A stretch of 64,000 nt of DNA from Escherichia phage Murica. The DNA lies in the sequence record NC_041871.1; one strand, written 5' to 3'. Position numbers and translations under genes: made by a program. Shown piece by piece: positions 20,120-23,346 of this stretch. How positions within the stretch are numbered: the stretch's first letter is position 1; each line of letters opens with the position of its first letter. A model generated the notes under the pieces. That model ran no database searches and was not told where the DNA came from. It saw nothing but the letters and a program-made list of their open reading frames with translations.

Positions 20120-20398
20120 ATGAGCTGTGAAAAATCTTTTTTCTTTATTATTTACGGTAAAGATAACTGCCCACATTGTGTAAGAGCAAAAGAATTTGCA
20201 GTCAGTAAAGGTCTGCCTTTTGTATATAAGACACTTGGCGAGGGTTACACAAAAGAAGAGCTTATTGAGAAGTGCAGTCCAATCGTACCCAGAACGTTGC
20301 CGCAGATCTTCTTAGAAAGCAATCTTGAAAGTGTCCATATAGGCGGTGCCGACGATTTCATCTCTTTTGTTAAGAATGGTTTTGGAGAGAAAAAGTGA
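20120..20398 (+). CDS. glutaredoxin-like redoxin
   Basis: 92 aa with CPHC active-site motif, between nrdB and nrdD. Confidence 0.8.
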   Translation: MSCEKSFFFIIYGKDNCPHCVRAKEFAVSKGLPFVYKTLGEGYTKEELIEKCSPIVPRTLPQIFLESNLESVHIGGADDFISFVKNGFGEKK

Positions 20399-22518
20399 AA
20401 GTTGTAAAACGGGACGGTAGAGAAGAGGTCTATAACGGAATTAAGGTGATCAAGGCGGCAGAGTCCGCCTTACTTGAGTCTGGACATACTGAAGAAGAAG
20501 CTTACCGGATCGCTTGTGCGGTTAATGAAGTTGTTGCTAACAATCTACCAACCGACCAGTGCACAATCTCTGTAAAAAATATCCATATCCTTGTTGAAGA
20601 TGCTCTTATGGATATGGGTTTAAAATGTGCAGCCAGAGAATACATCCAGTATAGACAGACAAGAGATAATAACAGAGAGGCAGGTGGAAAACTGCTTGCA
20701 GATATTAGTGGCTTCTTGGATCGAACTTGTGATGAATTTACAAAAGAAAACGCAAATAAGCCTACCAATCATGTACACACTCATCGTGACCTGCTTGCAG
20801 GCATCCTTAGCAAACACCTTGCATCAACACAGATCCTGCCAGACCGTGTCTCAGAAGAGCACAATAAAGGCTTCATCCATGTGCATGATCTTGACTACTT
20901 GATCAGTCCGTTAACAAACTGTTGTTTGGTAAATTATCCAGATATGTTGGAAAACGGATTCAACATTGGTAACGCCCATGTCAGTAAGCCGAAGTCAATA
21001 GGGGTTGCAACAACAATCCTTAGCCAAATCTCTAGTGCGGTAGCTAGTGCTCAATATGGGGGTCAGACTATGAGCCATATTGATCATTATCTGGCACAGT
21101 ATGCTGAGGCGACTTATGAGAAGAACCTTAAATTTTGCCAGGAACATTGGTTGCCAGATGCTGAGACTGTTGCAATGCAGATGACAGATAAAGACGTATT
21201 TGACAGCATGCAGACTTTACTCTATCAAATCAATACGTTAACTTCTGTCAACGGGCAAACCCCATTCATCACATTAAGTTTAGGTCTGGACACCTCAGTC
21301 TTTGGTAGAATGATTACCAAAAACTACTTGAAAGTCCACAAAATGGGTCTTGGTGAAGAACGTATCACACCTGTGTTCCCTAAAGTGTTGTTCTTCCTAG
21401 AAGAGGGTGTCAACATGAACCCTGGAGATCCTAACTATGATTTGAAACGATTAGCTCTGGAATGCTCTGCAGAGCGGATTTATCCTGACTTTGTTTCTGT
21501 TCCACTAAATCGTAAAGTGACAGGCTCGACAGATGGCAAAGTAACGAGCATGGGTTGCCGGAGTTTTCTTAGCAAATACAGTGACTTGGAAACAGGCGAG
21601 GAGAAATATCTTGGCAGATTTAACTTAGGCGTTGTTAGCCTTAACCTACCAATGATTGCGGCAAAAGCTAAGACGGAAGGTGTTGATTTCTTTGCAGTTC
21701 TTGACGAATACTTGGATCTTGCATACGAGGCTCACCTTGTAAGGGTTAACCGTCTAAAAGGAACAAAGGCAGGGCAGAACCCCATCATGTGGTGTGAAGG
21801 AGCTCTTGCTCGCCTGGATCCTGAAGAGAGTGTTGATAAACTCTTCTATGACGGGTACGCTTCCATCAGTATTGGGTATATTGGTGTGTATGAAACCTGT
21901 CAGATTTTGGGTAGAGAGGGTGACAAGGCTTTAGCTCTTGGAATCCTTCAGCACATGAGAGATGCTTGTGAGCGATACAAGAAGGAAAGTAGACTAGCGT
22001 TTAGCTTGTACGGCACTCCTTCTGAGAGTCTATGCTATAAAGCTGCAACCTGTCTGGATCGTGAATATCCGGAAGTGTTGAAGCACGAGCATGAATATCT
22101 CACCAACAGTTTCCATCAGCCAGTATGGATAAATAGCTCTCCTTTTGATAAGTGGGAGTATGAGGAAGGTTTTGCTATGATCTCCTCTGGTGGCAACATC
22201 GGATACGTAGAGACACCTAACCTGAAAAACAACTTGGATGCTTTAGAGGCTCTTGTTGACTTCGGGTATAAACACATTATGTATTTTGGTATTAACCAAC
22301 CTGTGGATAAATGTCTCAAGTGTGGTTTCTCTGGTGAGTTCAGTGCAACAGCTAAAGGGTTCTGCTGCCCTGCGTGCGGATGCCACGATGAACAATATAT
22401 CTCAGTGATCCGAAGAGTGTCTGGATATCTTTCCAGTCCTAACTCCCGTCCTTACAATAAAGGTAAGCAAGCGGAAGTTATCGAGCGAGTTAAGCACTAC
22501 GGAAGTTGTGGTTGCTGA
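20395..22518 (+). CDS. nrdD: anaerobic ribonucleotide reductase (class III)
   Basis: 707 aa; C-terminal glycyl-radical motif RRVSGY and CxxC zinc cluster. Confidence 0.95.
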   Translation: MKVVKRDGREEVYNGIKVIKAAESALLESGHTEEEAYRIACAVNEVVANNLPTDQCTISVKNIHILVEDALMDMGLKCAAREYIQYRQTRDNNREAGGKLLADISGFLDRTCDEFTKENANKPTNHVHTHRDLLAGILSKHLASTQILPDRVSEEHNKGFIHVHDLDYLISPLTNCCLVNYPDMLENGFNIGNAHVSKPKSIGVATTILSQISSAVASAQYGGQTMSHIDHYLAQYAEATYEKNLKFCQEHWLPDAETVAMQMTDKDVFDSMQTLLYQINTLTSVNGQTPFITLSLGLDTSVFGRMITKNYLKVHKMGLGEERITPVFPKVLFFLEEGVNMNPGDPNYDLKRLALECSAERIYPDFVSVPLNRKVTGSTDGKVTSMGCRSFLSKYSDLETGEEKYLGRFNLGVVSLNLPMIAAKAKTEGVDFFAVLDEYLDLAYEAHLVRVNRLKGTKAGQNPIMWCEGALARLDPEESVDKLFYDGYASISIGYIGVYETCQILGREGDKALALGILQHMRDACERYKKESRLAFSLYGTPSESLCYKAATCLDREYPEVLKHEHEYLTNSFHQPVWINSSPFDKWEYEEGFAMISSGGNIGYVETPNLKNNLDALEALVDFGYKHIMYFGINQPVDKCLKCGFSGEFSATAKGFCCPACGCHDEQYISVIRRVSGYLSSPNSRPYNKGKQAEVIERVKHYGSCGC

Positions 22519-22522
22519 TTCT

Positions 22523-22553
22523 TGACAAAAGCCACAAGGATGTGGCATATTAT
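22523..22553 (+). promoter_or_regulatory. promoter with embedded palindromic operator
   Basis: TTGACA 22523-22528; -10 options CATATT/TATTAT at 17-19 nt; perfect dyad GCCACA-AGGA-TGTGGC (22531-22546) in the spacer. Confidence 0.5.
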
Positions 22554-22581
22554 TGACACACAGTGAGCTAGGAGGTGCAGT

Positions 22582-22698
22582 ATGTCATCAGGTATTTATA
22601 AAATTTGCAAGTGCGGCTGTAGTTGCAATCTTCGTTGGTGCAAGGCACTAGACGATTTTATTTGGCATTGCCCTAAATGTGATGCGGAGTATCTATGA
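22582..22698 (+). CDS. small cysteine-rich zinc-ribbon protein (38 aa)
   Basis: ATG 22582 after GGAGG; CKCGCSC...CPKCD; stop TGA overlaps the nrdG ATG; below ORF-track cutoff. Confidence 0.45.
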   Translation: MSSGIYKICKCGCSCNLRWCKALDDFIWHCPKCDAEYL

Positions 22699-23168
22699 AC
22701 ATTGTCGGATACGCAGAAATATCTTACACCGAAGGGCCAGGTATTAGAACTGCCTTGTGGGTATCTGGGTGCCCACACGCTTGCCCTGGTTGCTTTAATC
22801 AGGCATTTTGGTCAAAAGATAAGGGGAGGGAGTTCACTGAAGAAGACTTGCAAAAAATCTTGTCAGGTTTAGATAACCCGTCTGTGTGCGGTATCTCTCT
22901 GCTGGGTGGAGAACCCTTAGCATACTATAATGAGCCAGATATTATTAGCCTGATGGAGAAAATTAAGGAAAAATTTGGTGACAAGAAAACTATTCTTGTA
23001 TATACTGGGTTCACATTTGACCATATCTCTAGTGATGTTCTTAAACTGGCTGATATCATCATTGACGGTAAGTATGTAAAAGATTTACCAACCAAGAAAC
23101 CGTTCCGAGGCAGTGATAACCAAAGAATGTTTAAAAAAGTATCAGGCGGTTGGGTTCAGGTAGACTAG
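22695..23168 (+). CDS. nrdG: anaerobic RNR activating enzyme (radical SAM)
   Basis: CPHACPGC (CxxxCxxC) motif near the N-terminus; follows nrdD. Confidence 0.9.
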   Translation: MNIVGYAEISYTEGPGIRTALWVSGCPHACPGCFNQAFWSKDKGREFTEEDLQKILSGLDNPSVCGISLLGGEPLAYYNEPDIISLMEKIKEKFGDKKTILVYTGFTFDHISSDVLKLADIIIDGKYVKDLPTKKPFRGSDNQRMFKKVSGGWVQVD

Positions 23169-23171
23169 TTG

Positions 23172-23201
23172 TTGACAAAGCTTTGTTTAGATAGGTATAA
23201 T
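23172..23201 (+). promoter_or_regulatory. sigma70-type promoter TTGACA-18-TATAAT
   Basis: Consensus hexamers followed by GAGGAGG RBS. Confidence 0.65.
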
Positions 23202-23232: not shown

Positions 23233-23346
23233 ATGGCTAAAAAAGCCTTGAAGAAGGCGTACAAGAAAGAGATTGCGCTTGAGCTTAAGAAAAAACACAA
23301 GCGTGAAAAGAAACATCATGAAGATGAAGAGGGGGTGCAACAGTGA
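23233..23346 (+). CDS. small lysine-rich protein (37 aa)
   Basis: ATG 23233 after GAGGAGG; MAKKALKKAYKKEIALELKKKHKREKKHHEDEEGVQQ; stop overlaps next start. Confidence 0.4.
   Translation: MAKKALKKAYKKEIALELKKKHKREKKHHEDEEGVQQ

Follow-up and report, generated by a model that had tools for sequence, protein, structure and literature searches.

The closest described counterparts of the small protein analysed here are proteins deposited from phage genomes under two different names, 'ribonucleotide reductase' (for example YP_009031017.1, ORF107 of phage FFH2) and 'hypothetical protein' (for example QOC57324.1 of phage bov10K2). Both have the same 38 amino acids as the open reading frame (ORF) studied here, occupy the same slot between nrdD and nrdG and belong to the same family. 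The family is catalogued as PHROG 20137, a 38-position profile labelled 'ribonucleotide reductase', a label that equals the RefSeq product name of the small ORF in phages FFH2 and V18. The paper on the rV5 genome lists only gp109-112 and gp117 as ribonucleotide reductase (RNR) subunits, and no study or functional test of the small ORF was found in that paper or in a search of the literature.

Among known folds, the zinc ribbons of Rpb9/TFIIS, the Nudix N-terminal ribbon, eL43/L37ae and ZifS resemble the peptide in having two knuckles approximately 18 residues apart and the three-stranded sheet that is predicted, at low confidence, for it. They differ in the first knuckle, which in the 38-residue form of the peptide is CxC and not CxxC, and a canonical zinc ribbon is without the three extra invariant cysteines of the phage protein (CxCxCxC-x4-C). 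Rubredoxins are likewise small and Cys-rich, with a CPxC knuckle that follows acidic and aromatic residues; however, the peptide is shorter, has another knuckle spacing and has no conserved Gly after the knuckles.

The small ORF and its annotation

The window, i.e., the whole stretch of DNA that was analysed, comprises 64,000 nucleotides of Escherichia phage Murica (NC_041871.1), an rV5-like E. coli myophage (Vequintavirus), in which the region under study is 99.8% identical to that of bov10K2, EmilHeitz and others. The features of the locus are as follows.

20395..22518, + strand: nrdD, class III (anaerobic) ribonucleotide reductase, intact, 707 aa (Pfam NRDD, E=8.8e-160; Gly_radical; ATP-cone)
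22522..22551, + strand: candidate sigma-70-like promoter TTGACA-18-CATATT with TG before the -10 element (consensus scan, 10/12 matches)
22531..22546, + strand: 6-bp hairpin GCCACA-AGGA-TGTGGC in the spacer between nrdD and the small ORF, inside the spacer of the candidate promoter
22570..22575, + strand: Shine-Dalgarno sequence (SD) AGGAGG of the small ORF, 6 bases 5' of its ATG (from the sequence)
22582..22698, + strand: small ORF, 38 aa, seven Cys, PHROG 20137 (sequence and ORF list)
22686..22689, + strand: SD GGAG for nrdG, within the codons GCG GAG and 5 bases 5' of the nrdG ATG
22695..22698, + strand: ATGA overlap of the small-ORF TGA (22696-22698) with the nrdG ATG (22695-22697), from the sequence
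22695..23168, + strand: nrdG, radical-SAM activase of NrdD, 157 aa, CxxxCxxC (Pfam Fer4_12, E=6e-42; Radical_SAM; PHROG 626)

The small ORF translates to MSSGIYKICKCGCSCNLRWCKALDDFIWHCPKCDAEYL. Six cysteines had been counted in the initial annotation, but the peptide has seven (C9, C11, C13, C15, C20, C30 and C33), arranged as C-x-C-x-C-x-C-x4-C-x9-C-P-x-C, in addition to His29. The same annotation had correctly placed an ATG with GGAGG between nrdD and nrdG and an overlap of its stop codon with the nrdG start. The final codons of the ORF (GCG GAG TAT CTA TGA) abut nrdG, and in this way the ORF also provides the downstream gene with its SD and ATGA overlap. Its own SD is found at similar spacing in all 10 homologous loci inspected, even where the upstream sequence is unrelated.

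The peptide aligns with PHROG 20137 from end to end (residues 1-38 on profile positions 1-38; E=4.7e-30), a 54-residue variant matches the same profile with E=7.8e-21, and copies that are 100% identical to the small ORF are present in many records. The description of the ORF as unannotated thus fails for the family, which already has a PHROG and deposited proteins, while applying to individual records: that of phage Gotham omits the ORF, and the original rV5 record has a wrong-frame ORF114 drawn across it. The small ORF is hence inconsistently annotated rather than new.

Conservation and coding status

A tblastn search matched the small ORF in 120 phage records, and at E<=10 the matches to the peptide were limited to rV5-like (Vequintavirus) records and the podovirus vB_EcoP_ACG-C91. 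Protein searches, for which the query was the peptide plus 2 extra upstream codons, yielded further variants of 41, 53 and 54 aa from metagenome phage contigs of 130-140 kb. The 41- to 54-aa variants carry a Lys/Glu-rich N-terminal extension and have CKDC or CKHC as the first knuckle. The seven cysteines and the reading frame are invariant across the homologues found, well beyond what chance would give; His29 is variable and is replaced by Tyr in some copies. Conservation of the frame in related phages had been proposed beforehand as a check on the ORF, and the frame, the seven cysteines and the SD are all kept in the homologues found.

Over a core of 28 codons, eight distinct DNA sequences give a pS of 0.63 and a pN of 0.058 in the sense frame, i.e., a pN/pS of 0.09, as compared to 0.22-2.6 in the other five frames. 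Pairwise pN/pS values range from 0.05 to 0.15 with synonymous sites close to saturation, and third codon positions account for 19 of the 31 variable columns. Between the window and cousin phages the core of the small ORF is 84-88% identical, whereas NrdG is 48-54% and PhoH 49% identical, so that the constraint on the peptide is unusually tight. Judged from its conservation and this substitution pattern, the small ORF is a genuine protein-coding gene under purifying selection. Alternative frames, including rV5 ORF114 and a 60-aa antisense ORF, were rejected, as they are interrupted by stops in relatives or have a pN/pS of at least 0.22 against 0.09.

A profile search against 1.84 billion representative proteins detected neither distant relatives nor larger proteins containing the domain; its matches were the family's own clusters (P0008 and P0010), a fusion (P0012) and a spurious repeat protein (P0011). 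No chromosomal copy of the small ORF was found in the complete genomes of E. coli, and the sole E. coli 'plasmid' match (CP057073.1, 137.5 kb) is a complete Vequintavirus genome. Around 18 records named 'Campylobacter phage' (MG065635, MG065646 and others) are likewise essentially Vequintavirus sequences, and the 'Campylobacter phage' and 'plasmid' names likely reflect mislabelling or carry-over.

Two aberrant forms of the ORF were also observed. In phage vB_Eco_Alma (P0002), the C-terminus is frameshifted (…CDARVLISIRG…, 61 aa), with the seven cysteines kept and the conserved AEYL end lost. In a metagenome contig (ERZ22666087; locus L016, 652-840), a 62-aa ORF joins residues 1-20 of the peptide to the C-terminal part of ORF116, a gene of rV5-type genomes described below. 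The two parts meet at a GGTGC microhomology, with loss of the second knuckle; the fusion arose either as a deletion in nature or as a chimera of the assembly.

Position relative to nrdD and nrdG

All of the approximately 117 Vequintavirus records, as well as cousin metagenome phages, have the small ORF between nrdD and nrdG. The link of the ORF to nrdG is less uniform. Using a 91-nt probe across the junction (coverage >=80%), we found the coupled ATGA junction of the window in 84 phage records, a number equal to that of the records with an NrdG at least 80% identical to that of the window, and metagenome loci L005-L009 also have an ATGA coupled junction. In 33 other records, including that of rV5, the small ORF is free-standing and ends in a TAA stop, which is separated by ~150 nt from the 78-aa ORF116; it is ORF116 that overlaps nrdG there, and this nrdG is 52% identical. 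The small ORF is uncoupled from nrdG in the metagenome cousin L015 as well. In Phapecoctavirus UP17 and Seunavirus EspYZU08, nrdD overlaps nrdG by 4 bases and the small ORF is absent. The overlap by nrdD in the latter two phages and by ORF116 in rV5 suggests that nrdG tends to overlap whichever ORF precedes it.

From these comparisons, the small ORF is restricted to one lineage among the nrdDG-carrying phages, and its tie to nrdG is a weak one, a loose and lineage-specific arrangement. The translational coupling proposed in the initial annotation is likely in the window, in view of the overlap and the internal SD, but does not extend to the 33 of ~117 records and to L015, where the ORF is uncoupled. 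In the window lineage, nrdG initiation would depend, at least in part, on ribosomes finishing the small ORF.

The candidate promoter at 22522-22551 is located directly past the nrdD stop and 5' of the small ORF. Its sequence is the same in FFH2, rV5 and locus L010 and is kept in Vequintavirus, and the record of phage Gotham has a promoter at the equivalent place, as predicted by PhagePromoter. Based on this candidate, the small ORF and nrdG can presumably be transcribed together. The hairpin within the promoter spacer is possibly an mRNA 3'-end or stability element. Locus L015 has a hairpin in which the loop is unchanged and the stem differs by compensatory changes (GAGCACA-AGGA-TGTGCTC), and is missing the TTGACA, and L005 and L006 have different hairpins at this position. 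A scan of 22300-23000 against Rfam returned no RNA family.

Several neighbouring features were noted. The stop codon of a glutaredoxin-like gene (window 20120-20398, 92 aa, CPHC) overlaps the nrdD start codon (GTG, 20395), and nrdD too is thus apparently coupled to the gene upstream of it. Directly 3' of nrdG, at window 23172-23201, lies a perfect sigma-70 consensus (TTGACA-18-TATAAT), and it is followed by a 37-aa Lys/Glu-rich ORF (23233-23346) that starts MAKKALKKAYKK and whose end overlaps the GTG of the next ORF; this promoter and ORF correspond to rV5 promoter P118 and ORF118. In the rV5-type genomes, the Cys-rich ORF is separated from nrdG by two additional small ORFs (L013, 3133-3237 and 3269-3505), and the window is without both. 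These are ORF115, which is Lys-rich, 34 aa long and conserved in the cousin contig L015 (5142-5246), and ORF116, which belongs to PHROG 3249 (mislabelled 'minor capsid protein') and is the one coupled to nrdG.

The window, rV5 and Gotham all have an intact nrdD gene (707 aa). In FFH2 and bov10K2, which are very close relatives, and in cousin contigs the gene is in two to three pieces, with an HNH endonuclease gene and other ORFs intervening; the comparison covers the window (20395-22518) and loci L001, L002, L006 and L015. In phage A51.2, nrdD and the small ORF are separated by the insertion of a gene with a T5orf172 domain. The region from nrdD to the small ORF is a hot spot for insertions of the homing type.

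A copy in a podovirus without RNR genes

The one copy found outside the myophages and their metagenome cousins is that of vB_EcoP_ACG-C91, an SP6-like podovirus (Vectrevirus), which encodes a 36-aa protein 77% identical to that of the window (L004, 3998-4108). Neither the GenBank nor the RefSeq record of the phage annotates this copy. It is located between a nucleotide kinase gene and a DNA-ligase-like gene and has the arrangement GGAG-N5-ATGA before the ligase. The DNA similarity between the window and ACG-C91 spans only the stretch from the ATG to the ATGA, and the differences within it are mostly synonymous. A tblastn search for NrdD, NrdG and NrdB in ACG-C91 gave no match.

In other Vectrevirus phages, the slot between the kinase and the ligase is occupied by unrelated and interchangeable small ORFs. 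In phage K1E it holds a 38-aa ORF with a CPNC-x18-CHSC zinc ribbon (L017, 699-815) and in vB_EcoP_B a Cys-free ORF of 57 aa (L018, 699-872). The slot ORFs of K1E, vB_EcoP_B and ACG-C91 each overlap the start of the ligase gene by 4 bases, and two of the Vectrevirus slot ORFs are mutually unrelated Cys-knuckle peptides. The K1E protein is similar to the small ORF in size, in its CxxC-x18-CxxC spacing, in occupying the slot of the ACG-C91 copy and in its 4-nt downstream overlap; it differs in having four cysteines instead of seven. As a homologue it was rejected, given an hhalign probability of 34% over 9 columns and no similarity detected outside the CPxC knuckle.

The confinement of the similarity to the stretch from ATG to ATGA, together with the presence of unrelated ORFs in the same slot elsewhere, suggests that the small ORF travels as a movable single-gene cassette, landing at variable sites among genes of DNA metabolism.

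Predicted fold and metal binding

The two knuckles, C9/C11 (CxC; in the variants of 41 to 54 aa, CKDC or CKHC) and C30/C33 (CPxC), are 18 residues apart and invariant, and between them could provide four ligands for a metal. Profile searches with the 38-aa protein found no Pfam family at E<=1 and no significant zinc-ribbon match in NCBIfam, where L37ae appears only at E=0.14-4.7. A profile search against the PDB gave only local matches with E>=2, to zinc-ribbon proteins (LysW, and the 'IWHCPKC' stretch of eL43). An AF2 model built on a shallow alignment has strands at residues 16-20, 25-30 and 35-37 and is of low confidence (mean pLDDT 64.6, pTM 0.35); the best Foldseek matches to it are zinc ribbons (Rpb9, the Nudix N-terminal ribbon and ZifS), all non-significant (E>=1.3).

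The zinc ribbon named in the initial annotation is thus in keeping with the two knuckles and the low-confidence sheet, but is not corroborated by a Pfam or NCBIfam profile or by the Foldseek scores. Based on the cysteine spacing (CxC/CxxC, 18 residues, CPxC), a zinc-ribbon-like, metal-stabilised mini-domain is the most likely fold, plausible but unproven. The three further invariant cysteines could form a second metal site.

Two other assignments were considered and rejected. The stretch ...DDFIWHCPKC... has what we take to be a loose resemblance to the CPxC knuckle of rubredoxin. Membership in that family is contradicted by the lack of a Pfam match and by the motifs themselves, which are CKC-G and CPKC-D as against CxxCG...CPxCG. 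The window peptide does not match the Lar-type restriction alleviation proteins either (PF14354 and TIGR03655); weak sub-threshold Lar matches arise only from the unrelated K1E slot protein.

Functional interpretation

We consider it somewhat more probable than otherwise that the small ORF is a mobile accessory gene for a metal-stabilised, stand-alone binding mini-protein, the target of which is not specifically the NrdG of the phage. The 38-residue Cys-rich peptide most likely folds around zinc and is probably a stand-alone binding module, possibly for a host target. Its gene would be a mobile accessory cassette that has its own SD and, in Vequintavirus, also a candidate sigma-70-like promoter. 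The cassette lies between nrdD and nrdG, genes that overlap directly in the sister genera. In the window lineage it would, in addition, couple the translation of nrdG through the SD and ATGA overlap that it provides, a role presumably taken by nrdD in Phapecoctavirus and Seunavirus and by ORF116 in rV5. Speaking against this explanation are the lack of a zinc-ribbon match in Pfam and NCBIfam, the low AF2 confidence and weak Foldseek scores, and two further observations: every myovirus copy is found between nrdD and nrdG, which fits a role in ribonucleotide reduction no less than plain synteny, and the host of ACG-C91 has its own NrdDG, which leaves room for an RNR-directed function.

A more specific version of this explanation, and not a contradiction of it, is that the peptide is an effector of host takeover or anti-defence, small, stabilised by Zn and Lar-like in kind, that inhibits a defence system or a conserved protein of E. 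coli, with its proximity to nrdG being incidental. The exchange of the gene between unrelated E. coli phages, a myovirus and a podovirus, as a precise single-gene unit is consistent with such a function, as are the promoter-like site of its own that it has among early or middle genes, the variable Vectrevirus slot that holds alternative small ORFs and its absence from E. coli chromosomes. A core far more conserved than the adjacent enzymes would also be expected of a protein facing an invariant host target. However, the peptide has no sequence match to Lar or to any other known anti-defence family, and in this narrower form the proposal is unlikely.

Rather less likely is the function that the initial annotation had suggested for the peptide, that of an accessory factor dedicated to the anaerobic RNR. 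Such a factor might donate electrons (from a rubredoxin-like or Fe-S centre), deliver metal to NrdG as a chaperone or modulate the activation of NrdD, and coupling would keep it in a fixed ratio with nrdG. The position between nrdD and nrdG in ~117 Vequintavirus records and the cousin metagenome phages, the ATGA overlap with nrdG in the window and 84 records, the seven invariant cysteines, which suit a metal or redox centre, and the CPxC stretch, which presumably is loosely rubredoxin-like, would all be accommodated by this function. The comparative data do not support it. Phapecoctavirus and Seunavirus lack the ORF and have nrdD directly overlapping nrdG; in 33 records, that of rV5 among them, and in L015 the ORF is not coupled to nrdG; and in ACG-C91 a copy under selection persists without RNR genes and is coupled to a DNA ligase instead. 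No rubredoxin or other Pfam family matches the peptide, and the NrdD and NrdG of the window are both full-length with all of their own motifs present, those of NrdD including a C-terminal Cys4 zinc site and the glycyl-radical motif. The 'ribonucleotide reductase' label, for its part, equals a RefSeq product name for which the literature yielded no functional test.

In a variant that we regard as very unlikely, the peptide would hold a redox-active metal centre (a rubredoxin-like Fe or a small Fe-S cluster) and feed electrons or metal to NrdG, that of the phage in Vequintavirus and that of the host in ACG-C91. If this were true, the activation of class III RNR in infected cells would involve a third component, the peptide, that had gone unrecognised before.

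Least credible of all is that the ORF is only a leader whose translation delivers ribosomes to nrdG and whose peptide is functionless, for although the nrdG SD within its last codons, the stop/start overlap and the overlap of nrdG by the preceding ORF elsewhere (nrdD in UP17 and EspYZU08, ORF116 in rV5) are as such a leader would have them, the amino acids are under purifying selection (pN/pS 0.09) with seven invariant cysteines, the ORF is intact in rV5 and L015, where nothing is coupled to it, and a second phage family has acquired it as a unit by transfer.

Implications

The direct value of these observations is modest, and they raise no new question on anaerobic ribonucleotide reduction. 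They do call for a correction of the annotation, as the gene is left out or drawn in the wrong frame in rV5 and several relatives, goes unannotated in ACG-C91 and is labelled 'ribonucleotide reductase' in PHROGs and RefSeq with no functional test located. Of wider relevance to the biology of these phages is that a very small protein, with a core much more conserved than the surrounding enzymes, appears to move between unrelated coliphages as an exact single-gene unit. Such high core conservation combined with single-gene mobility is a pattern often seen in effectors whose host target is invariant, which makes the mobile mini-protein that we favour a reasonable candidate for knockout or pull-down experiments.
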